Source: Promethearchaeota archaeon (GTDB lineage: Archaea > Asgardarchaeota > Lokiarchaeia > Sigyniarchaeales > SOKP01). Taken from it: 64,000 nt of DNA. The translations under genes were made by a program, and so were the position numbers. The notes under the pieces were generated by a model that was given only the letters and a program-made list of their open reading frames with translations, made no database searches and was not told the origin of the DNA. Positions 23,223 through 62,174 of this stretch are shown here, in pieces (within the stretch, counting starts at the first letter, position 1; each line of letters opens with the position of its first letter). The stretch covers positions 32,001-96,000 of the forward strand of contig JAUVXW010000009.1 in the NCBI GenBank assembly GCA_030603385.1. The letters are read 5' to 3'.

Positions 23223-23349
23223 TTTAGTAGATAAATTCAAGCTCTATTTTTATCAAACTCATTTTAATAGCCCTATATATAAATTTTTATGTTATAAATC
23301 GAATTTTAATTATAAAATATTAAAAAAAAAGTTAAATATGATAAGAATT

Positions 23350-37770: not shown

Positions 37771-38449
37771 TTTACATCATTTTTTGTTTATAGTTTTTAA
37801 ATTAATTTTAAATATAATTGTTTAGGTTAATTTATTTCCCACTCAATTAAAAAATTCTGCTTTTCTTTATCTTTGGAGTAAAATTGTTTATGGATAAATA
37901 TGAATTATTATTCATAACTAATTTTTTTTTAGGTTCAGTTAATTAGATGAATGAATTCTTTTGAATAATTATTCATTTTATTGTAAATTTTGTCTATAAA
38001 GGTATCATTTCTAGCAATTCTTACTTAGAAGAATTTAGCTAATTTGATAATTAAAGAAAAAGTTTTCTTTATCATTTAAACCATTGATAAATAGATACAG
38101 ATTTTGAATAATTATTAATTTTATATAATTGTTAGATTATATTCGCAACGTCAAAAATAACAAATCTAACTATTCCTAGAACTATTAATATATGTCCTAA
38201 GTGTAATAAAAAAAGTAAAATAACTCAAGATAAAAGTATGAACAAAGATGAAATAATTCAGTGGTTTTCTCTCTTCATCAATATAAATAAAGATAATTTC
38301 ACATTAGATTGGTTTAGAGGGCAAAAGTTAACATTTGAGAGTATTTATGAAATGAGAAAACAACCTTATTAATCAAAATTTATATAAAAGAAAGCAACCT
38401 AATTATTAATTACTTACAAATTATATTTTACAAATTTGGCGAAATTAAT

Positions 38450-40153: not shown

Positions 40154-40324
40154 TCTACTTCATTAAGGATTAATTTTGAAAATGAAAATTTTATATAATA
40201 GCGAATATACTCAAACAATTTTATATAAAAATTTATGAAAGTTTCCAAAATTATAAATATAATAATTAATTTATAATAATTATAAATTTAAAAAAAATTT
40301 AAATTTTTGGAGGTATTAAGAAAC

Positions 40325-41779
40325 ATGTTAGAATTGAGTGAAGAAAAAGTATACGATATTCGAAAGGTTTATGGAAAAGACAAGAAATCAGGAGAAGACT
40401 TTTATAACAAATGGCTTAGAGAATATCCAATCCTAAAAAACGAAGATGTACAAAAGTGGATTAGAAATAAGATAAATCAATTTACTGATGAGGGAAAAAA
40501 TCCGAAAGGTTTCAAAATAACGACATATTTAAGACCATTATATCAATATTGCCTGTTTAATAAAGTAGAAAACCCTACAGATTTATTAGATGAAGTAAAC
40601 ATGACTGTAGAAATAAACGGAAAAAAGGGAGATATAGAAAACGGAAATCTAAGATTAAAGACATATATTAATTTTCTTTTGGATGTAATAAAAGACAAAA
40701 ATAACAAACAGAAATTACAGAAATTAAAAGATCTAAAATTTAGGGTAATGAAAAATACTGGAAAAGTAAAGATACCAAACGAAGTTTCAGTTAGAAATAT
40801 GATACAAGGCAGAATTAGGAGTTTTTACTCATCCCGTGGATTTCAATTATCCGTAAAAATAAAAACAAAGGATTCTGGTAAAAATGTAAACGAAATAGAT
40901 GTAGACAAAGAAATGATAAAACGAATTAAAAACAACATCAATAATATTACATATAATTTGGTCTGTAAATTTCAAACTCAGACAGGATTAAGAATAAATG
41001 ATATATTGAAAGAGTTAACAAATGGTAAATATGTAATTGAAAATTATAAAGATGGAGATTTCGAACGTTACTTTATTAGAAATTTTGAAACACAGAAAGA
41101 AAAAGTGGTAATTAATTTTATGCCATTTACAAACGAATTAGCAGATATGTTGAGTCTTACATATCCTGAAATAAAAGATGATTTAACCAAATTGGATTTA
41201 TCAAATTTATTTATAACAAGAAACAATAAACGTATAAGGGAAGTTGATTACTTAGACAGATTAAAATTGGCAACTAAAAGGGCTGGAATAAAAGGAAATA
41301 TGAAGACACATTTGCTTAGAAAATATTATATAACACAGATAGAAGATGTTAAGGAAATAAGTAGTAAATTTAGAGACCATTTAGAAGGACATACCACAGA
41401 TTATTCAGATAAAACATATAATAAGAATATTAGACGTATCAAATGGTTTTTTGATAATTGGAAATTAATAGAAGAGAGTATTTGTGTAAACGGTGTTATA
41501 TATGGTAAAACAGATAAGAAAGTTATAAAATTGGATAAAAGATACAAAGATATAATGGAACAATTAGTTGAAACCAATAAAACAAATACAGAATTACAAA
41601 ATAAATTAAATAGTATGGAACATAAGGTAGAAGGATTTGACCAGTTATTTAGAATATTACTCGAAAAGCAAAGATATTCAGAGGAAATCGATGAAAAACA
41701 TGGAATTGAATCTACAAAGGTATACAAAGTTATGAAAAAGGTATTTGAAGAACATTTTGAAAAGTTAAGTAAAAAATAA
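40325..41779 (+). CDS. int: Tyrosine recombinase/integrase with C-terminal coiled coil
   Basis: QTGLRIND (R), TQKEK (K), THLLRKYY (HxxR), LEGH, DKTY (Y); GGAGGT precedes ATG 40325. Confidence 0.9.
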   Translation: MLELSEEKVYDIRKVYGKDKKSGEDFYNKWLREYPILKNEDVQKWIRNKINQFTDEGKNPKGFKITTYLRPLYQYCLFNKVENPTDLLDEVNMTVEINGKKGDIENGNLRLKTYINFLLDVIKDKNNKQKLQKLKDLKFRVMKNTGKVKIPNEVSVRNMIQGRIRSFYSSRGFQLSVKIKTKDSGKNVNEIDVDKEMIKRIKNNINNITYNLVCKFQTQTGLRINDILKELTNGKYVIENYKDGDFERYFIRNFETQKEKVVINFMPFTNELADMLSLTYPEIKDDLTKLDLSNLFITRNNKRIREVDYLDRLKLATKRAGIKGNMKTHLLRKYYITQIEDVKEISSKFRDHLEGHTTDYSDKTYNKNIRRIKWFFDNWKLIEESICVNGVIYGKTDKKVIKLDKRYKDIMEQLVETNKTNTELQNKLNSMEHKVEGFDQLFRILLEKQRYSEEIDEKHGIESTKVYKVMKKVFEEHFEKLSKK

Positions 41780-46799: not shown

Positions 46800-47252
46800 T
46801 TATTTAATTTCGATTTTTAAATGTTTACATTCCTTCAACTTCCTTTTTAAGAAATTCAAGAATTTTTTATATGATTTTAAACCATATCTTTTTTTAATCC
46901 AGTTGGTCATTGCTATGAAAATCATATCTACATCTTCCAATGTCTCTTTTAAAATTTGATTATCTAACTCCTTTTCTGTCACTTCTGTAAATCCTAATTC
47001 CTCCAATTTTTCTATTGACGGATCATCTAAAAATTTCTGCTTTAATTTTTCTTGTTTATTTTCTTGTTTATTTTCTTGTTCATGTTCCCACATTTTAAAA
47101 GCATGAGTTATCTCGTTATTTTTATTTAACGCAGTCCTATTTGTTTCATGATAATATTGTTCAAATAATATTTCTTGTCTTTTTGTATATCTTTGTCTAC
47201 TACCTTGAGAATAATACCATTTCTTTATTCTCCTCCAAAATTCATTACTCAT
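46800..47252 (-). CDS. Hypothetical protein carrying the recurrent ETGK module
   Basis: YYHETNRTALNKNNEITHAFKMW. Confidence 0.7.
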   Translation of the reverse strand: MSNEFWRRIKKWYYSQGSRQRYTKRQEILFEQYYHETNRTALNKNNEITHAFKMWEHEQENKQENKQEKLKQKFLDDPSIEKLEELGFTEVTEKELDNQILKETLEDVDMIFIAMTNWIKKRYGLKSYKKFLNFLKRKLKECKHLKIEIK

Positions 47253-47258
47253 TTTATA

Positions 47259-47990
47259 TCACGTCCTGTTTTGTTTAATTTTCTTTTGATATTGTAACCA
47301 TTGTTTAAATTGTACAGTGATTTTATTACCCCAAATAACATGTTGACCTGTCTCGGCTTCAAATCTTTTTATTAATTTTGGATATTTATTTTGAAACTCA
47401 TTTACACTCATTTTTATTCCTTTTTGTTTCTTTAAATTTTGCGGATTTAAAAGAACATGAAACATAAAATTCAATTTATTTTTTTCCCCGTCCTTTTCAT
47501 CTTCTTTATCATATTCATAAGTTTCATAAACTCCATATATCCTTCCGTACAATTTACATAAGGAAATAAATTTATCAAAGTTCTGTCTAATATGAATAAT
47601 TTTTTCGAGATTATTAGTGGCATAATCAATAATTTGAATGTAATTCTTAAACTCTTTATGTAGCTTTAATTTTAATAAAATTTCAATGAACTTTGCTTTA
47701 TATTTAAAAGTGAATTTATTATATTTGTCACGTTTACTCTCAATACATTCAGCAAAATTATACCATAAATTATTATCAAGATATTTTATAAAACCTCCAC
47801 CAAGTTTTAATGCACCTCTCATCGAAATAAGCACATATTTACCATCCTCTGTATCTGGTGTTTCTGGTAAAGGTATATTGCTTTTAATGAATTCTTCAGC
47901 AGTAAGCTCTATATAATCTTTCTCATTCCCCTTTTCAAACATTTTTCTTACCATTTCTTTTAATCTCCTTCTTTTTATTAGGAATTCCAT
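47259..47990 (-). CDS. Hypothetical protein with C-terminal ETGK module
   Basis: FEAETGQHVIWGNKITVQFKQW. Confidence 0.7.
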   Translation of the reverse strand: MEFLIKRRRLKEMVRKMFEKGNEKDYIELTAEEFIKSNIPLPETPDTEDGKYVLISMRGALKLGGGFIKYLDNNLWYNFAECIESKRDKYNKFTFKYKAKFIEILLKLKLHKEFKNYIQIIDYATNNLEKIIHIRQNFDKFISLCKLYGRIYGVYETYEYDKEDEKDGEKNKLNFMFHVLLNPQNLKKQKGIKMSVNEFQNKYPKLIKRFEAETGQHVIWGNKITVQFKQWLQYQKKIKQNRT

Positions 47991-48450
47991 AACGAAATTT
48001 ATCTGTATGTTTAATATATGTGAGTCTCTTTTCGATGAGTTTTATGATGGATTTTGTGCTTTCATCATCAACGTGTTCTCTAATAAATTGATAATACTCA
48101 TCCCAAGTTTCCAATTTGTGATATTTCATAAATCTCGCAATATCTAATAAAGGTAAATCTGTACCTCTTCCTTTTTCAAACAAATAAAAAATACAGAAAA
48201 TATTGTTTTTCCAACCATAATCAACCTCTTCTATGCCTAAATCTTTAAAAACTCTCTTTATGAACGGCACCAAATTAATAATTTCTTTCTCATATCTCAG
48301 AACTTTATGTGCTGGCTTTTTCACAAATTTCGTTAAAAAATCCAAATAACCTGTATATGTATAACAACGTACAACTCCACATCTTAAATATCCTTCATCT
48401 ACTTTTCCTTTTTCTAAGACATTCTTATATTTATTGCTCAATTTTTTCAA
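47935..48450 (-). CDS. Hypothetical protein
   Basis: 171-aa ORF in the co-oriented array. Confidence 0.65.
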   Translation of the reverse strand: MKKLSNKYKNVLEKGKVDEGYLRCGVVRCYTYTGYLDFLTKFVKKPAHKVLRYEKEIINLVPFIKRVFKDLGIEEVDYGWKNNIFCIFYLFEKGRGTDLPLLDIARFMKYHKLETWDEYYQFIREHVDDESTKSIIKLIEKRLTYIKHTDKFRYGIPNKKKEIKRNGKKNV

Positions 48451-48462
48451 CTCTTTTTTTTA

Positions 48463-49158
48463 TTACTTCGCATAACCTTTATGCTCTTTATATACATTCC
48501 CTCTATAATGTGTTCTCTTACACCACGAGCAGTAATAAGGTTGAGTCATAGGTGGCGGTGGTCTATTAGTCCTTTCAATATTATCTACCCATTCATTTAA
48601 GTTATGGATTTCATCATTACTAAGTAATCCTTTTTCTATTTTTTCATTCAATATACCTCGAAAAAGATATGTTTGTTTTTGTATTTGTTCGTATGATAAT
48701 TCTTTACAACCTAAATTTGCTGAAACAAAAATACCCATAGCTTCACTATCAGAGAGTTCCATTATTTTACAACTAATTTTTTCACGACCTAACTTTTTCG
48801 TGGCAGTAAACCTTCGATACCCCTCCACAAGAGAATATTTTTCACTATTATTAATTGGTCTAATAATAACAGGAGTTATCAAACCTACATCAAGTATAGA
48901 CATTAATAAAGCTCCATCATTTTCGTCATTAGACCATCTATCTCGAAATGAGATAGAATCATCAATTTTAATATTCTTAATGTCAATCTCTTTTATATTC
49001 CATTTCATTTGTTTTATCTCTTTTTGCTTATATCTCCATTGTTTAAATTGTCCAGATAGCTTACCACCTATAATGGCATTTTTGCCTGTCTCTTTTTTAA
49101 ACAATAAAGTCGATTTATATATTTTTGGATATTTATTTTTGAATACTTCTGTGTTCAT
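48463..49158 (-). CDS. ParB/Srx-like domain protein with N-terminal ETGK module and C-terminal CxxC-H-H motif
   Basis: LLMSILDVGLITPVIIR...YSLVEGYRRFTATKKLG...SAN. Confidence 0.85.
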   Translation of the reverse strand: MNTEVFKNKYPKIYKSTLLFKKETGKNAIIGGKLSGQFKQWRYKQKEIKQMKWNIKEIDIKNIKIDDSISFRDRWSNDENDGALLMSILDVGLITPVIIRPINNSEKYSLVEGYRRFTATKKLGREKISCKIMELSDSEAMGIFVSANLGCKELSYEQIQKQTYLFRGILNEKIEKGLLSNDEIHNLNEWVDNIERTNRPPPPMTQPYYCSWCKRTHYRGNVYKEHKGYAK

Positions 49159-49319
49159 TATCTAACCTCCTTGTTATTTGAAATAAATTTTTTAATTGAT
49201 AATTTCTTTAAAAATTCATACTCGTCATAAGGGCTATGTGGTACATAATATAGAGAGTCATAATTCAGGAGCTTATGAGTTTCAGCATCTACAGGTAGTT
49301 TTTTAATTTCCTTACTCAT
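49158..49319 (-). CDS. 53-aa ORF, below the ORF-track size cut-off
   Basis: MSKEIKKLPVDAETHKLLNYD...NNKEVR*; start overlaps the end of the upstream gene and the stop overlaps the ParB ATG (TAATG). Confidence 0.55.
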   Translation of the reverse strand: MSKEIKKLPVDAETHKLLNYDSLYYVPHSPYDEYEFLKKLSIKKFISNNKEVR

Positions 49320-49629
49320 CTTTTTTAACCTCCTTGATAAGTTCTGATAATTTATGTTGACATTTTTTAAACTCCCATTGTATCATATTATATACTTCCT
49401 CTGCTGTATCCAATTCTCGAACTAATTCACCAATTTCACCGATAATTGACATTTTTTTACTGACTTTAATTATAGCAGGTGAAAACATTCCTTGCTCTTT
49501 TTTTACCTTCTCCACATGTTTAATTATATTATCCAATGAGTTTCTTATCTGGCTCATATTCCTAAAATTCAACATATGTCTCAATTTTTTCAAATTATCC
49601 AATAAATTTTCTGTAAAGGGTTCTGGCAT
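49312..49629 (-). CDS. Hypothetical helical protein
   Basis: ORF abutting the stop codon of the TOPRIM gene. Confidence 0.7.
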   Translation of the reverse strand: MPEPFTENLLDNLKKLRHMLNFRNMSQIRNSLDNIIKHVEKVKKEQGMFSPAIIKVSKKMSIIGEIGELVRELDTAEEVYNMIQWEFKKCQHKLSELIKEVKKDE

Positions 49630-51636
49630 TTACTCATCCTCCAATTCAAATTCAATTTCATCATCTATTTCCTCATCTTCAATTTCCTCTAATTCCTCTT
49701 CTTCAAGTTCAATATCTTCAATTTCCTCATCACCCAATTCTTCGAAATCAATTGGTTCCTCAAGTATTTCAATAAGTTCGTCTTGTAATTCTGTCATAAA
49801 ATTATCAAAATTAGTTTCAATAAAACTTTCTCTTCTCTCTATAAATTCCTCTTTAAGTTCATTATATTCTGGAATTTGCTTAATAATTCTTTTACATATA
49901 ACCTTTTGCTTTCTTACCAGTTTTCTAAGTCCCTCAGTTTGTTCATTTGATAATATACGCAATTGTCTATTCTGCTTTTCAATAATACTCCAAGGATCTT
50001 TAACAATATTATCACCCTTATATCCCTTATTTTTCCTTAGAATTTTTTTGAAAATATCATATTTACCCTTTGTATATATTAGATTTTGGAGCTCCTCATT
50101 AGTCTCACGCATTTTATTAACTCTATCTCTTATAAGCTCATACCAATCTGTCGTAAATCGCACGTTCCTCTCATCTAAATACTCATTAAATTCTCTATAT
50201 GCTTCTTCTCCAATTTCTCCCTGTTTTTCAGTTATTTTATCTGATAATTCCCTCAATTTATTATTGACAATATTTATTCTTCTCTCTATTTCCTTGTCTA
50301 TATTATCTATAAATTCTGGTCTTGAAACATTGAGAGTATTTAATGTTGGCTCATAATAATCTGGTTTTTCATATCTACTCAAGTTCCATGGTCTTTCTGG
50401 ATCTTCTAAAATTCCAATTAAATAATCAATAAAATCTCTGGCTTTATTTTGCTCATAATCTTCTTCTTCTCTTTTTGTTAACAAACTGTTTATCTCTGCC
50501 CGCCTCTCTAAACAGGAATTAATCCAATTATTATATTTTTCTCTTTCATCTTCAGTTATATCAAACTCTAAAACCTTATTTCTTACCTTTTCTTTCTGTT
50601 TTTCTTTCTGTGTTTCTGTAACATCATAATCTTCGGCTATTTCATCAAACTCCACCCCAATATGCTCTAAAAAGTCAGGATTTATCCCTACACTTTCACA
50701 GGGAAATCTTTCCCTAATGTTGAAATAAATCATAAGTCCGTCTATATCTAAATCATGTTGAACAAATACATAAAAATTTCTAACTTTTGAAAATGGTATT
50801 AAATATTTAATTACTGCACTTACAGGATAACCACCTAAAGAAATACCATAAAATCCCTCGTTATATCCCCTATTAATTAGTTCTCGCATTGTAAAATCAA
50901 TAAGTATCGTTTTTTCACAGATAATTAAGAAAAAAGGTACATTTTCAAATTCCTCCAATCTCTCCAATTCAATCAGATTTTTCTTTGTTAAAATAATTTC
51001 TACCATATTCATATCAAATATATTCGCAGTACCCTTAATATCAACTCCGAGATAATCTGGAACATAACCCCAATACTCAAAACCTAAAAATTCAAAGAGT
51101 TTATTATAATATTTATCTACTGCTTGACCAATAGCTTTTTGTTGCTCTTCTTTAGTGCCTTTTAAATTTAATTTACCACCAAAACTTTTCCTGACCTTAT
51201 AGAATACCTCCCGTTTATCTGTTTTTTGGAGGTTCAAATCTAATTGCTTAAAAATCCATCTCTTATTTAATATCTTAACTACTTCTTTTTTTTCTTTAAT
51301 TCTTGGAAATTCTTTGACTAAATACACTATATCTTTATATTTTGTTTTTGGTATTTGTTTCCTATAATAATCATCCAATTTTTCAACAACATGTTCTCTA
51401 ACATTTGTCCTCCATATAGGTATATGAATAGCACGACAAATATGATGATATTTTGGTTTTCTCATTAACCAAACTTCAAAATCCCCCAGATGTACTCCAT
51501 TATCTTTAAATGCCTGTTTACCTGTTTCGGCATAATATTCCTTTATCGATTCGTCTCCATACTTTTCTATAAATTCATTATAAAGCATTCGAACAACAGG
51601 CGAGTGAAATTTTTTTATTAAATCTTCTCGATTCAA
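49630..51636 (-). CDS. Spo11/Topoisomerase VI-A-like TOPRIM protein with N-terminal ETGK module, coiled coil and acidic tail
   Basis: KREVFY (5Y-CAP-like Tyr), IICEK, LGGYP, HDLDIDGLMIY (DxD), SVGI, RAEINSL. Confidence 0.78.
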   Translation of the reverse strand: MNREDLIKKFHSPVVRMLYNEFIEKYGDESIKEYYAETGKQAFKDNGVHLGDFEVWLMRKPKYHHICRAIHIPIWRTNVREHVVEKLDDYYRKQIPKTKYKDIVYLVKEFPRIKEKKEVVKILNKRWIFKQLDLNLQKTDKREVFYKVRKSFGGKLNLKGTKEEQQKAIGQAVDKYYNKLFEFLGFEYWGYVPDYLGVDIKGTANIFDMNMVEIILTKKNLIELERLEEFENVPFFLIICEKTILIDFTMRELINRGYNEGFYGISLGGYPVSAVIKYLIPFSKVRNFYVFVQHDLDIDGLMIYFNIRERFPCESVGINPDFLEHIGVEFDEIAEDYDVTETQKEKQKEKVRNKVLEFDITEDEREKYNNWINSCLERRAEINSLLTKREEEDYEQNKARDFIDYLIGILEDPERPWNLSRYEKPDYYEPTLNTLNVSRPEFIDNIDKEIERRINIVNNKLRELSDKITEKQGEIGEEAYREFNEYLDERNVRFTTDWYELIRDRVNKMRETNEELQNLIYTKGKYDIFKKILRKNKGYKGDNIVKDPWSIIEKQNRQLRILSNEQTEGLRKLVRKQKVICKRIIKQIPEYNELKEEFIERRESFIETNFDNFMTELQDELIEILEEPIDFEELGDEEIEDIELEEEELEEIEDEEIDDEIEFELEDE

Positions 51637-52130
51637 TCATCTTCATCTCCTATTCCCCTATCTTTACCACCAAAAATATATGGCGAGTATAATTCCTCTA
51701 AATCCTGATAACTTAAATCTTTTAAAGAATTATTACCTTTCCATCGATTTTTCCAAAATATTTCTAATTCGTCAAGTGTATTAAATTCAGCACCTTCTAA
51801 ATAATCTGGATTTTGTCTTACCCAATGAAACATATATATTGGAATTAGTTCTGGATATTCCTTAACAAGTTTTAAATATTTTATAAAAAATTGGTTTGTT
51901 TTTTTCTCAGTTAATCCAAGAATTTTTATCATGGATTTTACATTATACGATGAATCAGGTTTATGATTATCCGATATATCTTTAAACAATGGTTCTAATT
52001 CCTTTTTTAACCAATTTAAATTATTAGCATCTTCTCCTTCCAAATTACAGAATTCAATAGCCCATTCAAATTCTTTATATTTTTTCATACATTTTAAAAT
52101 TATTTCCTTAAACATCAAATGTTCACTCAT
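51633..52130 (-). CDS. Hypothetical protein
   Basis: 165-aa ORF with SD GGAGG. Confidence 0.7.
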   Translation of the reverse strand: MSEHLMFKEIILKCMKKYKEFEWAIEFCNLEGEDANNLNWLKKELEPLFKDISDNHKPDSSYNVKSMIKILGLTEKKTNQFFIKYLKLVKEYPELIPIYMFHWVRQNPDYLEGAEFNTLDELEIFWKNRWKGNNSLKDLSYQDLEELYSPYIFGGKDRGIGDEDD

Positions 52131-52279
52131 TATTCTCTGACCTCCTCGTTTTTTACTTTAATATCAAGATAATTTCTAACAAGTTCAGCAACCAGCTTTT
52201 TTATGGATTTGTTTTCTTTTGAGGCTCTTGTTTTCAATAGAATGTGAAGTTCGTCATCTATAATAATTTGTTTAACCAT
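52130..52279 (-). CDS. Ribbon-helix-helix (CopG-like) regulator, 49 aa, absent from the ORF track
   Basis: MVKQIIIDDELHILLKTRASKENKSIKKLVAELVRNYLDIKVKNEEVRE*; first gene of the operon, TAATG overlap with the next gene. Confidence 0.8.
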   Translation of the reverse strand: MVKQIIIDDELHILLKTRASKENKSIKKLVAELVRNYLDIKVKNEEVRE

Positions 52280-52289
52280 AATATAATCT

Positions 52290-53583
52290 CTCTTTCATTT
52301 TTTTCGATTTATCGATTAATCTATTAATTAAAATAAATATTGGATTATTTATAAATCTATTTTTCACATACAAACGATATATCCTGTTTGATAATAACAT
52401 TAGCAATAATTAGATTCATGAGTTGAATAATTAGACAGATGTGATATTTTGAGTTTCTGGGAATTTTAGATATTTGACTTGTAGTATGGTTTAAACTCAA
52501 TTATAATACATGAAATTGTGTTTTGAATATTCCAAACATGTTTTAAATCTTTCTACTCTATAAATATGGCATAATTGGAATATCGAAAATTTTTCGATCT
52601 TATATTTTTATATTTTATTAGTTTGATGACATCTATATATCCAATTAATCTACAACTCCAATTTGATATATAGCATTTAATAGATTAAAAAAAATCCAAT
52701 GTACACCAATTCTATTGGTGTATTAATATATACTATAATTGAAAATTAGAGTGTATGTATATGTACCTTGGAATATTTAAGTTTAAAAATTTTTTTGAAA
52801 AAAATTTAATTTTTTTACAAAAAATAGATAAATATTGAAAAATTTTTAATGTTCTCTTAAATTGTTTAAAAGATATTATAGAGATTGAATGATTTTCCGT
52901 TATATATTAGATATAATATAAAATCTTTAAAATAAATAAATAATTATATCATTTTTTTCAAATAATAGGAATTTTTTACTTTATAATAATTATTATTTTA
53001 TTGGATTGTTTAATATATAAAGTTAAAGTATAATGATTATGGTTTCTGGCTATTTGTTTGATGTACTTATTATTTTCAATACTAATTTCTAAAACTTGGG
53101 TAATTTTAGTATTAAAAAAATCCAAAAATAACACGAAATTAGTTAATTATAATTAAAATCATAATTATCTTTGATTTAAATTAGATTAAATCCAATAAAT
53201 TTAATAGAAATAGAATGAAATTAAGTTATTTTTAAAGATAATTGATTTTGAATAGTGGAAATGATAGAATCATTAGAAAATTTATTTTGATTATAACAGG
53301 AGATATAATGTATAAATTTTTTATTAGATGATTTATTCTGAATACGATTAGAAAGTTTCTACTCAATATAGATATGTTTTATATTTAAATCAATCGTGAT
53401 TTTTTTTAAAATTCTGCTTCTAAATACCAAATTCAGAGTTTAATTTTTTCTCCATAATGAGAAATGAAGAAATATTCAAATATTCTATATATAGGAAAAA
53501 AAAAAAAATAAAAAAAAATAATAAAAAAAAATAAAATATATATAATATAATATTGAGTTTTTTCTAATTATCTCATTATGAAT
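52290..53583. other. AT-rich non-coding region; candidate replication origin of the element
   Basis: 1.3 kb without ORFs, immediately downstream of the SF3 helicase. Inverted repeat CATAATGAGA (53453) / TCTCATTATG (53571) flanks an A-tract; palindrome TACACCAAT-TCT-ATTGGTGTA at 52702-52722. Confidence 0.5.
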
Positions 53584-55362
53584 TTAAAAAGCTTCAAATT
53601 GAAAATCATCGTCTGTTTCAAAAAGCTCATTAGCATCTATTTTCTCAGAGTCCTCTAATTTAATATCATCAAAAATTTCTACTTGTTTTTCTGTTTCAAA
53701 TTCACTTTTTCCATATTCCTCGTTTTCCTCTCTTGCATCTTCAAATGCCCTTCTTACTCTTATTGATTGTATGTTATCATCACTTTTAAAATCTTCGTTA
53801 TAACTTATTCCTCTATATTTATAACCACTACTTTCTGAATGTGTTTTCTTGCTAACTGAAATAACTCTTACTTTTGGATATATCGATTTTAAGGAACGCG
53901 TACATTTTGATTTAGAAATTTCTGGGAGTCCTCGTTTCTTCCTCCAATTACATATCATCTCATAAAATAATTGACAATCAATTGAACCAGTTTCATTATC
54001 TGAACAATATCTTTCAGTATATTGTGCTACTGGATTCCTCTCAAGTGCCCAAGTCACCCTAACATACTCTTCAGTTTGTCTAAATCCCTTTCTCTCCTCT
54101 AATCTTAATATGGCTATCAAACATTTATTTAATAATCCACTTAATTCTTCTTGTGTAGAAATTTTATCTCCAAAATCTCGAATTATTTCTTTTATTCCAA
54201 ATATATTATAACATGGTATTAATATCCATCTTCTATGAAATCCTTCTGATACATATTTATCGTCTGGTAATATATTACAACCAAATAAATTTTTTGTAAT
54301 ATTCCACCATGTAACATCATCTTGAACTCCTTTCATTTCTCCCGATAATATCTTATTAGTAACAATTTCATTAAATGTATCTGTATATTTTATAGGTTTA
54401 TCTAAAAGATCATCTCCAATATTTACCATTTTATCTCTTAAGTTATGTATTTGAAAAGTTCTACCAAGTTCATGTAATTTTTTTTTACAAATATGTTCCT
54501 TTCCAATAAAATTTGTTATAATCTCTATAAGTGTTGTTTTACCTGAACTGGGAGGTCCAAACAGCATAAAAGCCTTTTGAAATTTAATTGTTGGTATTAA
54601 AAAATAACCAATCATTTCATATACATCGTTTTTATACCTTTTTCCAACAATTAAACTAATTTCCTTATCAATTAAAGGACATTTAGCTTTTGGATTGAAT
54701 TCAACAGGTAATTGAGTAAATGTTCTAATTGGTTTTTCTATCTTTTTATGAGATATGAATTGCCATTTTTTACCCCTTCTTATTAATAAACCATTTAACA
54801 CATTTATAATATTTTCATTGTAGTGAAATGTATCTAAATGTACATATGTTTCATCTCGAATTAGATCATAAACATTATTACGTGTTGATATGGTATGTCT
54901 GAAACCTTCAATTCCTTTGGCAATTTTATTAATCTCCTGTTTTATCTTTGTTTTTGGTATTGTTCCTCTTTGATAATATCCCTTATTATATAAACAGAAT
55001 TCATCAGTTTCTCGAAGTGTTAATAATTTATCTCCATGTTTATCTACAATTTGTTTTTCTATATTTCTCTCAATTTGTTCAGATGTTTCTGTTTGTTTTT
55101 CTGCTTCAATTTGAACCTTAATTGTATGTTCTAAATTAACAAAATAATTTAATAATTTTTGAGCTGTATTGTTAGTTAAAAAATTTAATTCCGAAAGATA
55201 TTGATTAAGTTCATTTTTAGGTTTTTTAATTTCAATATGTTGTTTTTTATTCCAATTAAAGTAACATATAAAATTCTTATCATGAAATATATTAACTCCC
55301 TTTTTATCAGGGTCAATTACTAACACTAAATTATCATTAACTTTTAATCTTCTTCTTACCAT
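53584..55362 (-). CDS. Superfamily 3 helicase (P4/D5-type primase-helicase C-terminal region)
   Basis: D5_N-like INVLNG...FTQLPVEFNPKAKCP; Walker A GPPSSGKTT; Walker B NIGDD; motif C FGCN; FHRRW; C-terminal wHTH. Confidence 0.88.
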   Translation of the reverse strand: MVRRRLKVNDNLVLVIDPDKKGVNIFHDKNFICYFNWNKKQHIEIKKPKNELNQYLSELNFLTNNTAQKLLNYFVNLEHTIKVQIEAEKQTETSEQIERNIEKQIVDKHGDKLLTLRETDEFCLYNKGYYQRGTIPKTKIKQEINKIAKGIEGFRHTISTRNNVYDLIRDETYVHLDTFHYNENIINVLNGLLIRRGKKWQFISHKKIEKPIRTFTQLPVEFNPKAKCPLIDKEISLIVGKRYKNDVYEMIGYFLIPTIKFQKAFMLFGPPSSGKTTLIEIITNFIGKEHICKKKLHELGRTFQIHNLRDKMVNIGDDLLDKPIKYTDTFNEIVTNKILSGEMKGVQDDVTWWNITKNLFGCNILPDDKYVSEGFHRRWILIPCYNIFGIKEIIRDFGDKISTQEELSGLLNKCLIAILRLEERKGFRQTEEYVRVTWALERNPVAQYTERYCSDNETGSIDCQLFYEMICNWRKKRGLPEISKSKCTRSLKSIYPKVRVISVSKKTHSESSGYKYRGISYNEDFKSDDNIQSIRVRRAFEDAREENEEYGKSEFETEKQVEIFDDIKLEDSEKIDANELFETDDDFQFEAF

Positions 55363-55376
55363 TATTTAACCTCTTA

Positions 55377-55919
55377 TCAATTTATATTAATATCCTTCCA
55401 ATATTTTTCCGTTTTGGCTTTGGCAAAAAAATTCAATACGTCTTCTGGTGGTTGTGATGTAATATTCCCAGATTCTAAATTTCTTTTTAAATAATTAACA
55501 TAACTTTTACAAAAACCTTTAAAAGATGTATTTGGAATTTTCCAATTATATCCAATTAATTCTAATAATAATAAACAACGTATATTATCTTCCCTCTCAA
55601 TCTTTCCTTTAATATTAATAGTAATTAAATTATCAAATTCTTGTTGTGTTACGACCTCACCAGATTGTGTTTCAATAAATTCTTTTAACTCCTTAATTTT
55701 TTTGCCAATACCAATTGGAAAAATTGGTCTACCGAATGTTGTAAATATTACAATAAAATCTCCATTTCTGGATGTTCCAGGTGTGTAAACTCCATTTTCA
55801 ATAACATCCATTCCAACACCACCTAAAATTAAAACCCAGTTATTATCTAAATATTCCTCTAACATACTCCATAATTCGTTATTATCAAAAAGTCCAATCT
55901 TTCCATGTTTTTTACTCAT
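55377..55919 (-). CDS. Hypothetical protein
   Basis: 180-aa ORF upstream of the helicase. Confidence 0.7.
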   Translation of the reverse strand: MSKKHGKIGLFDNNELWSMLEEYLDNNWVLILGGVGMDVIENGVYTPGTSRNGDFIVIFTTFGRPIFPIGIGKKIKELKEFIETQSGEVVTQQEFDNLITINIKGKIEREDNIRCLLLLELIGYNWKIPNTSFKGFCKSYVNYLKRNLESGNITSQPPEDVLNFFAKAKTEKYWKDININ

Positions 55920-56344
55920 CTTTTATAACCTTTTATTAAACTCCCTACATTTTCTTTTTCTATCAATAATTTATTTAATTCTTCTTTGGTGTCGCACGGT
56001 TTAACAATAATATAATGTGCTTTACAATGTAGACATCTGATATATATAAAAATTACTAATACCTGATTACAAACTTCAATATCATCTATAATTACGTTTT
56101 TATTACATGTTCCACAGATGTTATTATCCAACAATTGTTTTACATGTAAATCTATATCTTCTTTGGTTATAACTAATTTGAATTTAGTTATAATATTACA
56201 GTGTAAACATCCTTCTGAAACTATAACATCATAATCTTTTAGATTATATTCCGTTTGTTTAATTAAAGGATTTTTACATATACTACAAATATTCGATTCA
56301 AGAATTCTCCTTTTGCTTGATTTTAATTTTTCTGTCACTTTCAT
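55916..56344 (-). CDS. Tandem zinc-ribbon protein
   Basis: Two repeats of NICxxC...CLHC. Confidence 0.75.
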   Translation of the reverse strand: MKVTEKLKSSKRRILESNICSICKNPLIKQTEYNLKDYDVIVSEGCLHCNIITKFKLVITKEDIDLHVKQLLDNNICGTCNKNVIIDDIEVCNQVLVIFIYIRCLHCKAHYIIVKPCDTKEELNKLLIEKENVGSLIKGYKR

Positions 56345-56522
56345 CTTCCAAGTTTTTAGTTAGATTTTTAATTCTAATTCTTTTAAAATCATTTTCTTCC
56401 CCAAACTCAATTAAATCATCAAGCACATAATTATATGACTCTCTTTTAGCTAATTTAAAATCATCTAATTTTACCTTGTTTGACTTACTTATTTGTATTG
56501 AAGAATATTCATCGACAACCAT
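56298..56522 (-). CDS. Small RHH/antitoxin-like regulator heading the replication operon
   Basis: SSIQISKSNKVKLDDFK...ESYNYVLDDLI; paralogue at 22989. Confidence 0.75.
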   Translation of the reverse strand: MVVDEYSSIQISKSNKVKLDDFKLAKRESYNYVLDDLIEFGEENDFKRIRIKNLTKNLEDESDRKIKIKQKENS

Positions 56523-57040
56523 AATTTAATCATCCAATTTTATCATAACTTATAATTAATTATTATAATTTATTATTATTTATAAATATTATTGAGTAAA
56601 TCGATGTAATACATAGATTCAACATAAAACATACATAAGCACATGATTTGGATAAATCTAACAAAAGTTAAAAAATAGTTAAAAAATTGTAAATGTCGTT
56701 AAAACATATATGAGATGTTATTTTTATACATTAGATGAAAAATGAACAAAGACAAAAATATTCGAAAAATTGAAAAGACCCCTGTGGAAGGCAGGGGCAA
56801 TAAATAGAGGTTTAAGATTTTGACAGAAAAATTAAACTCTAATTATTATAAAATTTATAACATTTATAAATTTATTTGAATGTAATCATTCTAAACCTAT
56901 CATTGGGTTTTAGTTTTATCCAATTTGTAAAATTGACTTAAATATTCACTTATTTGTTATTAGAAGTTATATAATAGAAAAATTATAATTGGATTAAAAA
57001 TTTATTTTAATTAATTGGATAACCAAATAGAGTAATTAGA

Positions 57041-57631
57041 ATGAAGATATTGATAACAGAAATCCCAGAAAAACGTCCAGATTTAATTTTGATGTTTGAA
57101 AGAGAAACTGGTAAGAATGCTATGTATAAGAAGAGTGGAAAAATAACTAAACAATTTAAATATTGGCTTCGACAAAAAATAAAATATGAAAACCTTCAAT
57201 GTGACATCTGTAGCAGAAATGACTTTAAAAATAAATATTCGTTGGCTCGTCATTTAAACTGGCATAATAAAGAATATCGAGAAAATCATAGTGGAGAAAA
57301 CCATCCTCATTTTGGTAAACGTGGCAAAGAAACTCAGTATTGTAAGGGTGATAATGCTGGTTATCATGCTATACATAACTGGGTTGATAAATATATGCCA
57401 AAGACAGGTATTTGTGAGATATGCGGTAAGCCAGAAAATTATAGAGATTTAGGTCCATTAGAAAAATCCAACAAGACTGGGAAATTAATTAGAGATATCA
57501 ATAATTTTCAGTGGGCTCATAGATATTGCCACAATAAATATGATAAAGATAACAATATAATACATGAGGGTTCACCTAATTTAAAAAAAGAAATAAATTT
57601 AATTAGTTTATCATCTGCCAAAATCGAATGA
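57041..57631 (+). CDS. HNH-type homing-endonuclease-like protein with ETGK module, C2H2 finger and NUMOD3-like motif
   Basis: CDIC...HLNWH; SGENHPHFGK; GYHAIHNWV...CEICG...RDINNFQWAHRYCHNKYD. Confidence 0.78.
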   Translation: MKILITEIPEKRPDLILMFERETGKNAMYKKSGKITKQFKYWLRQKIKYENLQCDICSRNDFKNKYSLARHLNWHNKEYRENHSGENHPHFGKRGKETQYCKGDNAGYHAIHNWVDKYMPKTGICEICGKPENYRDLGPLEKSNKTGKLIRDINNFQWAHRYCHNKYDKDNNIIHEGSPNLKKEINLISLSSAKIE

Positions 57632-57635
57632 TATT

Positions 57636-57929
57636 TTATCTTCTCGATTTATTCATCCTTAAATCTATGTTCTTCTCTGTCTCCTCTATTATCTGTTTTA
57701 AAATTTCTTCGTTCAGAAGTTCCGACAAGTCATAAATATGTCTCTTTCTCTGTCTCTTTTTAGAAGTCCACGTTCCGATATGTATTTCATTCATTTTTTT
57801 AAAATATAATATCTTACATTTCATGCTACAGAAGTTGTTATTATATTCTTTTGATATTTTACCGCAATATCCACATCGACATTTGAGAAATCTAAATACA
57901 CCTTCTGTGATATTGTTATATTCAGTCAT
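57636..57929 (-). CDS. Small zinc-binding protein (CxxC...FCSxxC)
   Basis: CGYCGK...FCSMKC; C-terminus homologous to 22417..22575. Confidence 0.7.
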   Translation of the reverse strand: MTEYNNITEGVFRFLKCRCGYCGKISKEYNNNFCSMKCKILYFKKMNEIHIGTWTSKKRQRKRHIYDLSELLNEEILKQIIEETEKNIDLRMNKSRR

Positions 57930-57950
57930 TTATCATCATTAAAATTTATT

Positions 57951-58067
57951 TTATAACGAGTTGATGTATGGTAATTTTAATCTGGCTTTTCTCTTCTCTT
58001 TAATTTTCTGTTGCTTCCGTTTCTTTCTTTTACTCATTATTTTCTTAATCCTTCGACCTACCATCAT
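57951..58067 (-). CDS. Very basic 38-aa peptide
   Basis: MMVGRRIKKIMSKRKKRKQQKIKEKRKARLKLPYINSL; TAATG overlap with the upstream ORF. Confidence 0.45.
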   Translation of the reverse strand: MMVGRRIKKIMSKRKKRKQQKIKEKRKARLKLPYINSL

Positions 58068-58219
58068 TACCAATTCCAAAAATTCTGTAAATCTTCTTGT
58101 GTAAATAAGCCAAACATTATAAATATACACATTAACACAAAAAATAAAGTAATGCACATGGAAACAATCGAAAGCTTATTCCTGCGTGTTTGCCATGTTT
58201 TCCAATTTTTCTCAACCAT
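58067..58219 (-). CDS. 50-aa single-TM protein, absent from the ORF track
   Basis: MVEKNWKTWQTRRNKLSIVSMCITLFFVLMCIFIMFGLFTQEDLQNFWNW*; TAATG overlaps on both sides. Confidence 0.6.
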   Translation of the reverse strand: MVEKNWKTWQTRRNKLSIVSMCITLFFVLMCIFIMFGLFTQEDLQNFWNW

Positions 58220-58653
58220 TATTTTTTACCAACTTTTTCTTTACATTTTACGCAAATTAAAAAACCATTCTGTTCTATTATTTCTTTATGTGTACAGAAC
58301 AAATCAAGAAGTTTTTCTTTTCTATCTTTCTTTTTATTAACTCTAACTCCACACACTCTACAAACAGTAAATCCGTCAGTGTCCATCATGGATTCGTCGT
58401 GTATACATTTAGTAATGATACCATCAGGAATAAGACTCTCTTTTTGTCTTTTAATTTCTTTATCACTAATTTCTTCCTTGTTTTCTGTTAATATGGGGTG
58501 TAATGCTCGATGGCTCTTATTGATAATATTTTCAAATTTTTGGATAGCCAATTCTTTTTCTTCTTTAGTTCTCCGTCTTTTTCTCTTTCTTTCATATGGT
58601 TTTACTAGTGGAGATCCAATTGAATATTCTCCAATTTTTTTAATTTTTCCCAT
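58219..58653 (-). CDS. Basic protein with two small Zn-ribbon repeats
   Basis: CIH...GFTVCRVCG and CTH...GFLICVKC. Confidence 0.7.
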   Translation of the reverse strand: MGKIKKIGEYSIGSPLVKPYERKRKRRRTKEEKELAIQKFENIINKSHRALHPILTENKEEISDKEIKRQKESLIPDGIITKCIHDESMMDTDGFTVCRVCGVRVNKKKDRKEKLLDLFCTHKEIIEQNGFLICVKCKEKVGKK

Positions 58654-58654
58654 T

Positions 58655-59155
58655 TTAATTCACCATATCTTTATTTATTTTATATGTTTTCTGAGAATAT
58701 CTTTCAAGCATACCTTTTTCTATGTAATACCTGATTATACTAGCAAAATCTCTTTTAATATTACCATCCTCGGTTATAGGTGGATGCACCTTATCCTTAT
58801 ATATCCCTATTATTATGTTCTTAGAAAAGTAGGTGTGTTCATTCAAGAAATTTAAAAAAAACTCATGAATATGATTATTCGAATCAAAATTTAATTTTAT
58901 TTCTTTGTGACGCCATTTATGTGAAGTTAATCCATGTTTACTATCAAATTCTCTATTACAAATATTACAACGATTATTCGGATTTGAATTTATTTTTTGA
59001 CCTTTATATGTTATTATTATATTTCTTTCTTGTGATAGCCAATTTATAAACGCAGTTGTAAATTTATTAGATCGAAATGGAGGGCTACGTGGAGTTTCTT
59101 TTCTGAAATCTGAAATTAAATTTGAATGCACTTGCTTAAATCTATTTATATCCAT
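58655..59155 (-). CDS. ETGK-like module + C2H2 zinc finger + winged-helix-like protein
   Basis: FRKETPRS...NKFTTAFINW; CNICNREFDSKHGLTSHKWRH; YIEKGMLERYSQKTYKI. Confidence 0.72.
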   Translation of the reverse strand: MDINRFKQVHSNLISDFRKETPRSPPFRSNKFTTAFINWLSQERNIIITYKGQKINSNPNNRCNICNREFDSKHGLTSHKWRHKEIKLNFDSNNHIHEFFLNFLNEHTYFSKNIIIGIYKDKVHPPITEDGNIKRDFASIIRYYIEKGMLERYSQKTYKINKDMVN

Positions 59156-59334
59156 TAATATTTATAAAATTTCTAATTATTATAAATTATTTGTGTTTTA
59201 ACACGATTTTAACAATCAAACCATATAAAAATATTATGATGAAAAATTAATAATAAAAACATAATATTTAAATAATAGAAAAATAATATTAAATTAATTA
59301 AAAAAATAATAAAAACATAATAAAGGTTAAAAAA

Positions 59335-59580
59335 ATGGTCTATAAATTAATAAGTGAATGGAAAAGTAAGGATGGAAAATCTCACGAGATTACAGTTTAT
59401 AAGTATAATGTAAGCCAAGACAATGTAATAAGATATAACTATGAATCGAAAAATGATTATGTAGATATAAAGGTTCAATGGTTTGGTAATCCTACTATGA
59501 CTGAATATGTTTATGTTCAATATAATAAACAAAAATTAACTGAAAATGAAAGAGCCTTAGTTCAAATCGGGAGGGATTAA
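59335..59580 (+). CDS. Hypothetical protein, first gene of a divergent operon
   Basis: ORF downstream of an AT-rich divergent intergenic region. Confidence 0.65.
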   Translation: MVYKLISEWKSKDGKSHEITVYKYNVSQDNVIRYNYESKNDYVDIKVQWFGNPTMTEYVYVQYNKQKLTENERALVQIGRD

Positions 59581-59582
59581 AA

Positions 59583-59936
59583 ATGCCAAAAGTAAATTAT
59601 GAAAAACAACCTTTTAGATTATGTAGATGGAATTCTATTGATTATAAAAGGAAAGGAAGAGAAGATATGTATTGGTGTTCTGATGCAGAAGAGTATGTTG
59701 AAGAAGATAGATGTATGAAATGTTTCTGTAATAATTGGTTTAATATTTGTTCAACCTGTAAAAAACAAATTCTTAAAACAGAGCTTATATATGTTTTCTT
59801 GCCAGAATTCAAACTTGGTTATATCTGTAATGATTGTTATGATGGTGAAGAGAAAGTTCAGAAAAAACCTTCAAAAACAGAAAGATATATAATTTTTGAT
59901 ATAAAAAAATGGATAAAATTAAATAAAGAGGAATAA
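59583..59936 (+). CDS. Cys-rich zinc-binding protein
   Basis: CMKC, CSTC, CNDC. Confidence 0.7.
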   Translation: MPKVNYEKQPFRLCRWNSIDYKRKGREDMYWCSDAEEYVEEDRCMKCFCNNWFNICSTCKKQILKTELIYVFLPEFKLGYICNDCYDGEEKVQKKPSKTERYIIFDIKKWIKLNKEE

Positions 59937-59941
59937 AAAAA

Positions 59942-60304
59942 ATGACAGAAATATCAAAAAGACAAAAGTTGTTAGTATTATTAAAAGATAAAGAATTAAC
60001 AGCAAAAGAAATATCGGAACAATTAGAAATTCCAATAGAATATGTGAGAACCTATATATCTCAATTTCCACAGATAAAAAAAGTCGGTAAAAAAGGTAGA
60101 TATAATTTATATAGATTTGTAGAGGCTAAACCAATAGAAATTGATGATTCTGGAGTTATGTCAAATTTTAAAAGACTTTACGAAATAATGAATATATGGT
60201 TAATTAGTAAAATGACACAAAAACAAATTTCAAATATTCCTGAAAATGTTTTAAAAGAATTAGATAATATGGAGGGAATTCTAAATGTCAAGTCTAACCG
60301 ATAA
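59942..60304 (+). CDS. Winged-helix transcription regulator
   Basis: LLVLLKDKELTAKEISEQLEIPIEYVRTYISQ...GRYNLYRF. Confidence 0.78.
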   Translation: MTEISKRQKLLVLLKDKELTAKEISEQLEIPIEYVRTYISQFPQIKKVGKKGRYNLYRFVEAKPIEIDDSGVMSNFKRLYEIMNIWLISKMTQKQISNIPENVLKELDNMEGILNVKSNR

Positions 60305-60563
60305 AATTAGAAAAGCTAAAAAATCAATGGAAATTCGAGAAGAGTTTAAAGATATACCTGGATTAAAAAAGAAACTTAAAGATCTTAAAGAGAATGGCAA
60401 AAAAATAGATGAAGAACTTGGAAAACCTATAAAATCTGACTGGGATAAAATTCACGAGACTTCTGATTATAAGAGATATATTTATCGAGTATTTGAAGGA
60501 AAGACTTTTAGAGGCTCAAATGCTGAATTAGATGAGTGGATCAAAACAAAATTTAATAGATAA
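60285..60563 (+). CDS. Hypothetical protein
   Basis: ORF with SD GGAGG, overlapping the upstream gene. Confidence 0.68.
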   Translation: MSSLTDKIRKAKKSMEIREEFKDIPGLKKKLKDLKENGKKIDEELGKPIKSDWDKIHETSDYKRYIYRVFEGKTFRGSNAELDEWIKTKFNR

Positions 60564-60657
60564 AATATTTTTTTTTCTCTAAATATCGATATTTTTAAGA
60601 GGTTATGGCTTAATTTCAACTTTTTTGAATATTTTTATATATCCAAATAAGAACAAT

Positions 60658-61027
60658 TCAAATTTCGAGATATAACAATAGAGTTTATTGATGTTTGAAA
60701 TAAATTCTAATTAGAAATTTATTTTTTTGATCCAAAATCCTTATTTTGTTCGATCTTAATTATCAAATTTTTCTAAAAAACAGTGTTTTTGGCATTCTTC
60801 CAATGTCTACTCTATTTAGAATACATAATTTTATTATGTTAATTTAAAAGAGTAGACGGTATGTAATCGAATATATGATCCAATATAGATCTTTTGAATA
60901 TGATATCGAATGAAATTAATGAAATTAAGTATAATATTATCTAAATTATCATTTTAATATATTTAGATGTAGTTCTATATCATAATCAAATTTCGAGAAA
61001 TAACAATAGTTTTAATCGATTTTTGAA
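60658..61027. repeat. Direct repeat pair flanking a 53-nt hairpin
   Basis: TCAAATTTCGAGAWATAACAATAG at 60658 and 60986 (23/24 identical); hairpin at 60805-60857. Confidence 0.8.
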
Positions 61028-61306
61028 TTTTCTAATCCAATATTCAAAAAATAAATTTTCCATCGATCCTTTGGAGCAAATATAGGGTTATTTCTAAATT
61101 TAAATGAATTTTCTAATTGAAAATTTATTTTATTGTAAATATATTTGATGATTTTTAATTTTCTGTTTGTAAATCAACTCAAAATGCACATGAACACAAT
61201 AAATTTATATATGAACATTGTAATCTATTTATTAATTAAAAATTTATTTAAAATGATTAAGAATATTTATCGAGAATCGATTGTAAATAAGGAGGTATAG
61301 AGTAAA

Positions 61307-61579
61307 ATGGAAGAAATAGATTATACATTGGTGGCAGAAGTTTCTAAAGCTTTTGCTGGAATAATTAATAAGAAAGTTATGGTTTCAAAAACATCTGAAG
61401 CTATAAAATATCTAAGAACCATCAAACAAGCAATTGTAAAAGGATGTAAAAGATCTGATTTCTTTTCTACATTTGGGCAAATTCTAAATTTAGTCCAATC
61501 TACAGTAGAAACGTGGTTAGATTGTTTACAACCAAGATATGTTGGGACATATAAGGGAACATGGAGTCCTTATAATTAA
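61307..61579 (+). CDS. Hypothetical protein
   Basis: Strong SD AAGGAGGT. Confidence 0.7.
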   Translation: MEEIDYTLVAEVSKAFAGIINKKVMVSKTSEAIKYLRTIKQAIVKGCKRSDFFSTFGQILNLVQSTVETWLDCLQPRYVGTYKGTWSPYN

Positions 61580-61637
61580 TTTCAAATTTAAAGAAAATGA
61601 ATATTTTATCAAAAATTAAAATAGGAGGTATAGTAAA

Positions 61638-62174
61638 ATGACAAAAAAAGCAAAAGCAAAACAGGTAGTAGTAGAAAAGAAAGAGCAAATGATTGTAGAC
61701 GATTTATCAATTGGAGATATAGTACCTGATTTACATGGTGTAGATGTAGAAATCACAGATGACTTAATTTCGGATATGAAAACTTTTGAATCTGAAGGAA
61801 AAACAAAAGCAATTTGGCGAAATAAAATCACTGGAATGTTTTTATTTTGGAGAATGAATAAAGACAAGCCAAAGAAAGAGAAAAAGGTGAAGAAAGCTAA
61901 GCCAAAAGTCGTTGAAGAAGAAATCGAAGAAGAACTTGAAGACATTGAAGTTGAATATGATGACGAAGAAGAAATCGATGAGATGGAAGAAATAGAAGAA
62001 GCAGTAGACGAAGTTAACAAATTAGATGAAGCAATAGAAATAGAAGCAGAAGAAGAAATAGACGAATTAGAACTTATCGATGAAGCATATAAAGAGAAAT
62101 TTAGTGTCCAAAAAGTTAATCGAAACGCAAAGAAATACAAAGCATTTGCTAAGAAGTATAGAGAGTCAGAATAA
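61638..62174 (+). CDS. ETGK-like module protein with a long acidic tract
   Basis: FESEGKTKAIWRNKITGMFLFW followed by a Lys patch and about 55 aa of E/D-rich sequence. Confidence 0.72.
   Translation: MTKKAKAKQVVVEKKEQMIVDDLSIGDIVPDLHGVDVEITDDLISDMKTFESEGKTKAIWRNKITGMFLFWRMNKDKPKKEKKVKKAKPKVVEEEIEEELEDIEVEYDDEEEIDEMEEIEEAVDEVNKLDEAIEIEAEEEIDELELIDEAYKEKFSVQKVNRNAKKYKAFAKKYRESE

Follow-up and report, generated by a model that had tools for sequence, protein, structure and literature searches.

A basic mini-domain on the RNA polymerase of one Asgard order and on the proteins of a mobile island

How do seven different proteins, encoded close together in one archaeal genome, come to carry the same short peptide module, and does this module belong to the mobile element that encodes them or to its host? 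The question is raised by a 64,000-nucleotide stretch of the genome of a Promethearchaeota archaeon (assembly GCA_030603385.1, contig JAUVXW010000009.1, positions 32,001 to 96,000; hereafter the window), where an earlier reading of the letters alone had pointed, between positions 46,800 and 62,174, to an unnamed motif shared by seven open reading frames (ORFs), and had taken it for a portable targeting tag of the element. We find that the module is a lineage-wide host domain, which an integrated island uses at high density. Through it the island seems to link its DNA-handling proteins to something that the tail of the host RNA polymerase also touches.

The seven copies and their fold

All seven of the peptide strings quoted in the original prediction are present in their ORFs within the window, with profile support that divides them into five solid copies, one marginal copy (in the ORF that starts at 46800) and one degenerate copy (in a protein of 668 residues). 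To remove circularity, this support is measured with a profile built from 64 foreign modules, each less than 60% identical to any copy in this genome, and the expectation (E) values listed here are genome-wide, for a search space of 47,100 six-frame ORFs of the 3.89-Mb assembly:

46800-47252, minus strand: ORF of 150 residues, with a divergent module copy at 47064..47210, minus strand (residues ~15-63; E 0.008-0.02, marginal)
47259-47990, minus strand: ORF of 243 residues, with a module copy at its C-terminus, 47274..47417, minus strand (residues 192-239; E 1.1e-14)
48463-49158, minus strand: ParB-like protein, with a module copy at its N-terminus, 49012..49155, minus strand (residues 2-49; E 2.9e-9)
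49630-51636, minus strand: protein of 668 residues, with a degenerate module copy near its N-terminus, 51445..51591, minus strand (residues 16-64; E 0.1-0.6)
57041-57631, plus strand: C2H2 and HNH-like protein, with a module copy at its N-terminus, 57041..57190, plus strand (residues 1-50; E 2.5e-15)
58655-59155, minus strand: C2H2 protein, with a module copy at its N-terminus, 59015..59155, minus strand (residues 1-47; E 2.3e-5)
61638-62174, plus strand: acidic-tailed protein, with a module copy at 61731..61874, plus strand (residues 32-79; E 2.9e-6)

The match in the 668-residue protein is limited to the first half of the module, through ETGK.AF. The resemblance among the seven copies exceeds chance, because a hidden Markov model built from them recovers eight further copies in the genome that were not used for training (E 5e-8 to 2e-2, before iteration). 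When the model is iterated the count settles at 15 copies, seven on the window's contig and eight elsewhere in the genome. The DNA words that the original prediction saw shared between 47270-47410 and 49010-49158 are there too, and had been read as a recent duplication. They say little about one, because 19 of the 24 identical residues of the two copies also share their codon, against 14.8 predicted by the codon usage of the genome alone; we reject these words, which are mostly codon bias, as evidence of a recent duplication.

In the wider alignment the module measures about 45 residues around a core L-I-x-x-[FY]-E-K-E-T-G-K-x-A-I-W-x-G-K-x-T-x-x-[FY]-x-x-W, in which the T and the last W are conserved at more than 90%. 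Its mean net charge is +4.4 per ~47 residues, its flanks and linkers are rich in lysine, and its conserved polar or surface positions are identical across all paralogues. An AlphaFold2 model of the copy in the 47259 ORF (mean predicted local distance difference test score, pLDDT, 85.8) gives the order helix-helix-hairpin-helix, that is, a pair of short helices followed by a tight hairpin (A-I-W-x-G-K) and then by a helix at the C-terminus, and a full-length model of the HNH protein made from a different alignment leaves these elements unchanged at pLDDT 82-92. The module also exists by itself, as a conserved protein of 44-46 residues in which Lys-rich stretches precede and follow it; the nine clusters of this protein, on contigs of up to 67 kb, show 64-91% identity. 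Because this stand-alone form is conserved and the predicted fold is alike alone and inside a full protein, we conclude that the module is a real, autonomous, independently folding protein domain, and the claim that it is portable between unrelated proteins is borne out, its independent folding by prediction. Prediction of a homodimer from two module copies with an 83-row alignment scored 0.00, which speaks neither for nor against self-association.

The module has no named family, as had been supposed. No Pfam or NCBIfam family covers it at E<=1 in the window proteins, the eight host proteins or ten multi-copy foreign proteins; PHROGs holds no match to it; PDB sequences match its profile at chance level alone (E>=0.27); and fold searches with it return nothing significant. 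The literature, searched in full text together with the listed titles and abstracts on Asgard mobile elements, yielded no description of the module, which does not prove that none exists. Small shuffled add-on domains are known in general; the novelty lies in this particular family, in its connection with the polymerase and in the use that a mobile island makes of it.

Three known systems are nonetheless alike in part. The NUMOD modules (NUMOD1/3/4), reportedly found on homing endonucleases of the HNH or GIY-YIG kind, are likewise short, sit at the ends of mobile-element nucleases and are shuffled between catalytic domains, and NUMOD3 accompanies the module in 8 of 94 representatives as well as in proteins homologous to the HNH protein of the window. 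The NUMOD1/3/4 Pfam models, however, do not match the module itself at E<=1, and the module also sits on host RNA polymerase, GTPases, leucine-rich repeat (LRR) proteins and membrane proteins, where NUMODs are not known to occur. Rpo13, which is said to be a lineage-specific small subunit of the Sulfolobales RNA polymerase, resembles it as a small, helical, Lys-rich polymerase-attached element that occurs in one archaeal lineage only and is thought to touch DNA, but it is a separate subunit that is not known to be reused on other proteins, whereas the module is fused to polymerase subunit A' through a long linker; no Rpo13 Pfam match was seen on the module carriers scanned. SHOCT (PF09851) and similar add-on domains share with the module their size (~30-45 residues), terminal position, promiscuity and frequent tandem arrangement, with a function that is unproven; SHOCT is mainly bacterial and helical, while the module has a hairpin, is strongly basic, belongs to one archaeal order and shows no sequence match to it.

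Lineage and host carriers

The lineage to which the module belongs is made clear by a survey of 201 genomes sampled across the phylum, in which profile matches were counted:

Family f1 (the window's family): 40/40 genomes match, with 4-25 matches each
Family f2 (sister family in the same order): 3/3 genomes match
Family f5: 4/21 genomes match, all of one genus
The other 24 families sampled: 0/137 genomes match

The module is thus confined to one order of Loki-type Asgard archaea (Promethearchaeia) and almost unseen elsewhere in the phylum. With eight host copies in this genome and matches in every f1 genome sampled, its original description as belonging to the element proves too narrow. The sole trace beyond the window's order is found in one genus of f5 (g35; L063-L066), where an ORF of 74-92 residues has at its end a weaker module relative, Y-I-x-K-T-K-K-N-P-F-x-Q-G-E-F-x-D-D-F-L-N-W, with per-genome E values of 2e-5 to 8e-4.

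Of 1.84 billion representative proteins searched with the profile, 572 match at E<=1e-3, 39 of them at E<=1e-10, and a single protein can have as many as eight copies; the source names read 'hypothetical protein' and come from Lokiarchaeota or Promethearchaeia, and one false positive, an animal-type protein of 2,873 residues, is found among the matches listed. Among the best 149 representatives the module stands at the N-terminus in 52 and at the C-terminus in 54, hence at a protein end in 106 of the 149, and has an internal position in 12; 31 of these proteins are no longer than 90 residues, and 39 carry at least two copies (one of them eight). The highest copy numbers seen belong to a protein family (P0001, P0002, P0005, P0009 and relatives) with an unassigned N-terminal domain of ~150 residues followed by 3-8 module copies, among which two module subtypes alternate with Lys-rich spacers between them. 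A family model for the module would make hundreds of such 'hypothetical' extensions annotatable.

In this genome the host carriers are:

RNA polymerase A': C-terminal module behind a Lys/Pro-rich linker
Two adjacent proteins: module, ribbon-helix-helix-like segment, HisKA, REC
Treble-clef/CapR protein of 957 residues (contig 26)
ORF of 119 residues (L001:1419-1775; G000 contig 4), 2.2 kb upstream of rpoA'
IFT52-GIFT-domain protein
LRR protein
Protein of 261 residues

The 119-residue ORF is a near-copy of the N-terminus of the 957-residue treble-clef/CapR protein, module included, and is probably a truncated paralogue of it. Over 94 foreign carriers, the partner domains counted are:

NUMOD3 (matched elsewhere than on the module): 8/94
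Response_reg: 6/94
HisKA: 4/94
Ras/Roc/Arf GTPases: 4/94
LRR: 4/94
RNA polymerase: 2/94
NosD, Na/Pi cotransporter, BBS7-like propeller, ribosomal L13e, GIFT and ParB: 1/94 each

ABC and MoxR-type ATPases are further carriers found in Atlas, and several module copies lie on cytoplasmic tails, directly adjoining transmembrane helices. In the two-component carriers the module always abuts a ribbon-helix-helix (RHH) DNA-binding segment.

The tail of polymerase A' is the most widely conserved of all these carriers, because in 23 of 26 f1 genomes the final 152 residues of A', which comprise its conserved end, the linker and the module, align as one contiguous stretch, and A' is longer in f2 genomes (1025-1217 residues), where the one f2 A' inspected (G089) has three module copies with acidic spacers between them. 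The tail is plausibly also the oldest carrier. A close relative known from a metagenome contig has, in addition, a stand-alone module gene of 46 residues between rpoA' and rpoA'' (L071:5001-5141) and retains the fused module copy on its own A'; in other genomes the orthologous stand-alone gene lies away from the polymerase operon. The rpoA'' of that contig appears as two called ORFs, of 94 and 285 residues, where this genome has one.

The island and its carrier proteins

The seven window copies lie together on a segment of about 40 kb that is an integrated, strain-specific mobile element. Of the 15 same-genus genomes searched, all keep window 20-38 kb in synteny, at 70-87% identity, and none has a counterpart of window 42-62 kb; in two same-genus genomes (G219 and G212) the left and right flanks of the island lie only 214-291 bp apart. 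Absence from relatives and an empty site are thus joined by direct repeats, which bracket an insert of ~39.7 kb containing all seven carrier genes, and by a recombinase whose match is near threshold:

37916..38068: left copy of a direct repeat of ~150 bp, ~90% identical to the right copy
L069:15619-15781 (about window 77,620-77,780, beyond the window): right copy of the direct repeat
40307..41779, plus strand: tyrosine-recombinase-like integrase near the island's left end (Pfam Phage_integrase, E 1.2e-5, 25.7 bits against a cut-off of 27.1)

The module is enriched some 84-fold in this element, whose 39.9 kb contain seven copies while the other 3.85 Mb of the genome contain eight (p about 1e-9 in a rough Fisher test), and in five other genomes of the family its copies are dispersed, without a comparable cluster. 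Four of the island copies (47259 ORF, ParB, HNH and C2H2) form one subtype, which is common to C2H2/NUMOD3/HNH-like endonucleases of other Loki metagenomes, and their nearest relatives are the N-terminal modules of such proteins; the copy of the acidic protein is nearer to host-type copies.

The functional labels originally given to the carriers hold to different degrees. That of the ParB protein is secure, with ParB_N (PF02195) matched at residues 55-145, behind the module, at E 7.9e-12 and 45.5 bits against a cut-off of 26.3; the same protein matches TIGR00180 at E 4e-11, below the family cut-off. The HNH and C2H2 labels are weakly supported. Pfam HNH matches its carrier at E 0.37, and Foldseek gives HNH restriction enzymes as the best matches, themselves weak (E 0.03-0.1), along with weak C2H2 finger matches, while in the alignment of its homologues, which carry NUMOD3, the H...N...H and Cys pairs are conserved; the C2H2 protein at 58655-59155 has weak C2H2 Pfam matches. 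The TOPRIM label of the 668-residue protein is unconfirmed, as searches of Pfam, PHROGs and NCBIfam and a single-sequence search of PDB give this protein no match, be it to TOPRIM, to TopoVI-A or to another family.

The island also encodes a GIY-YIG protein, an N4/N6 methylase and a D5-like helicase and, in its portion beyond the window, an RmuC-family protein. That portion holds, too, a C2H2 protein of 189 residues that starts right at its zinc finger, without the module (L069:10928-11497). If it is a paralogue of the HNH carrier, this fits a module that one of the two has gained or lost. Other relatives hold different inserts at the island's site, which is therefore an integration hot spot. 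A stretch of 385 bp at window 22,840-23,232, outside the island, is 73% identical to 56,278-56,662 inside it and appears to be a relic that a related element left in the conserved flank.

What the module may bind

What would a polymerase, a ParB-like protein and a GTPase have in common that a single small domain could serve? We tentatively favour a generic, sequence-independent tether to a polyanionic structure of the cell, most likely nucleic acid in the form of double-stranded DNA. All module copies would then share one common ligand, the module would add local affinity or avidity on nucleic acid, and the partner domains (ParB, HNH, zinc finger, RHH) would supply specificity or catalysis, so that the island proteins would stay on DNA through a handle also used by the host polymerase tail. 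We rank this tether first because of the charge, the Lys-rich linkers, the tandem arrays and the stand-alone basic mini-protein, and because of the constant RHH pairing and the fact that the identifiable carriers are mostly nucleic-acid proteins (NUMOD3 8, RHH-HisKA-REC 6, RNA polymerase 2, ParB and L13e, with C2H2, HNH and CapR/treble-clef proteins as others of this type). Tandem arrays fit avidity for a polymer, and the same conserved polar positions in all paralogues fit one common ligand, not diversified specificities.

Several observations weigh against a DNA tether. The GTPases, LRR proteins, BBS7-like propeller, IFT52-GIFT protein and ABC/MoxR ATPases have no obvious business on DNA, nor do the Na/Pi transporter and the membrane-adjacent cytoplasmic tails, and a tag for protein docking or membrane binding would explain such carriers no less well. 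The module has no significant sequence or fold match to a known DNA-binding domain, and most of its conserved residues (core aromatics, helix caps, hairpin glycines) could be purely structural.

A docking tag for one conserved protein hub, possibly the transcription machinery, is the main rival, which we take seriously without preferring it. Here the A'-tethered copy would occupy or compete for the hub's site, and tagged proteins would be recruited to, or would recruit, the polymerase or a scaffold. Such docking explains the GTPase, LRR, propeller and membrane-tail carriers better than the nucleic-acid tether does, and the position of the module at protein ends, the very broad range of carriers (an ATPase included) and the identical conserved surface positions of all paralogues agree with it, as do the counting of A' as the ancestral carrier, the one stand-alone copy within the rpoA'-rpoA'' operon and the RHH plus module layout, which resembles a DNA-binding domain joined to a contact domain. 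Arrays of up to eight copies, however, would be odd for a single-site hub, and the stand-alone gene lies outside the polymerase operon in other genomes.

We hold it rather unlikely that RNA polymerase is the centre of a lineage-specific recruitment code written in this module. The A' tail and the tags on regulators, GTPases and island proteins would then all bind one partner, which may be a polymerase surface, a chromatin protein or a scaffold, and the element, by imitating the tail of the polymerase, would tie its ParB, nuclease and zinc-finger proteins into transcription complexes of the host. If true, the nearest relatives of eukaryotes would have a prokaryotic analogue of recruitment through tails.

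Among cultured organisms, Loki-type Asgard archaea are the ones most closely related to eukaryotes, and to our knowledge there is no account of how the many 'eukaryote-like' proteins of this group are targeted in the cell. Whichever ligand applies, one undescribed mini-domain sits on the polymerase of a whole order and also on GTPases and on LRR, BBS/IFT-like, two-component and membrane-tail proteins, so that its ligand would be a single handle on polymerase biology, protein targeting and the interplay between element and host, and the stand-alone form of 44 residues makes the ligand question directly testable in vitro.

It is improbable that the module is a peripheral membrane-binding tag, holding to anionic lipids through its polybasic flanks and interfacial Trp/Phe, although it would then supply the membrane anchor that Asgard small GTPases lack. 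Its basic and aromatic composition suits such a role, as do the copies beside transmembrane helices or a C-terminal anchor and on the Na/Pi transporter, and the Ras/Arf/Roc-type GTPases, BBS7-like propeller and GIFT protein among its carriers; yet the conserved carrier is RNA polymerase A', the identifiable carriers are mostly nucleic-acid enzymes, and the predicted fold is compact, not an amphipathic helix.

Just as doubtful is a diverged version of a known small nucleic-acid-binding fold, for which there are two candidates. The RNase H1 hybrid-binding domain (Cauli_VI, PF01693) is likewise basic and ~40 residues long, with a similar hydrophobic-x-G-K/R ... aromatic ... W spacing. It runs strand-strand-helix-strand-helix, which differs from the predicted order of elements in the module. 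The best Cauli_VI match is one of 19.1 bits over 16 residues of one protein, below the threshold of 21 bits, and at E<=0.001 its model matches nothing in 151 genomes of the phylum, 25 of which are from the family that carries the module throughout; membership in Cauli_VI is not supported. The MerR/excisionase-type winged helix (HTH_17, PF12728) shares with the module the order of secondary structure and a terminal helix with a conserved Trp, but when the 84-row module alignment is compared by hhalign with 23 HTH_17 domains of the same archaeal family the probability is 0.5% over 16 columns, and profile-profile similarity does not support membership there either. Finally, a chance low-complexity resemblance without shared ancestry or function, for which the AT-rich and Lys-rich genome and the two of seven copies that are weak by independent profile might be cited, deserves almost no credence beside the E values of the independent profile, which go down to 1e-15, the 572 representatives from foreign sources, a confident and consistent predicted fold and conserved stand-alone orthologues, and is already contradicted for five of the seven copies.

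From A' the module appears to have spread as a terminal add-on to many host proteins, to a stand-alone protein and onto proteins of mobile elements. Capture of a mini-gene as the general route of this spread is attractive in view of the stand-alone gene, but is rejected because a sign of it is missing: the edges of the module show no excess of Met residues, with 6 where 8.0 are expected after N-terminal copies and 7 where 7.7 are expected before C-terminal ones. Predicted viral contigs carry the module as well: two low-G+C contigs of IMG/VR, 3300027901_000002 (L036) and 3300035158_000603 (L037), which were found by a degenerate DNA pattern, hold one short module ORF each, and both modules are clear (E 2e-11 and 4e-17).

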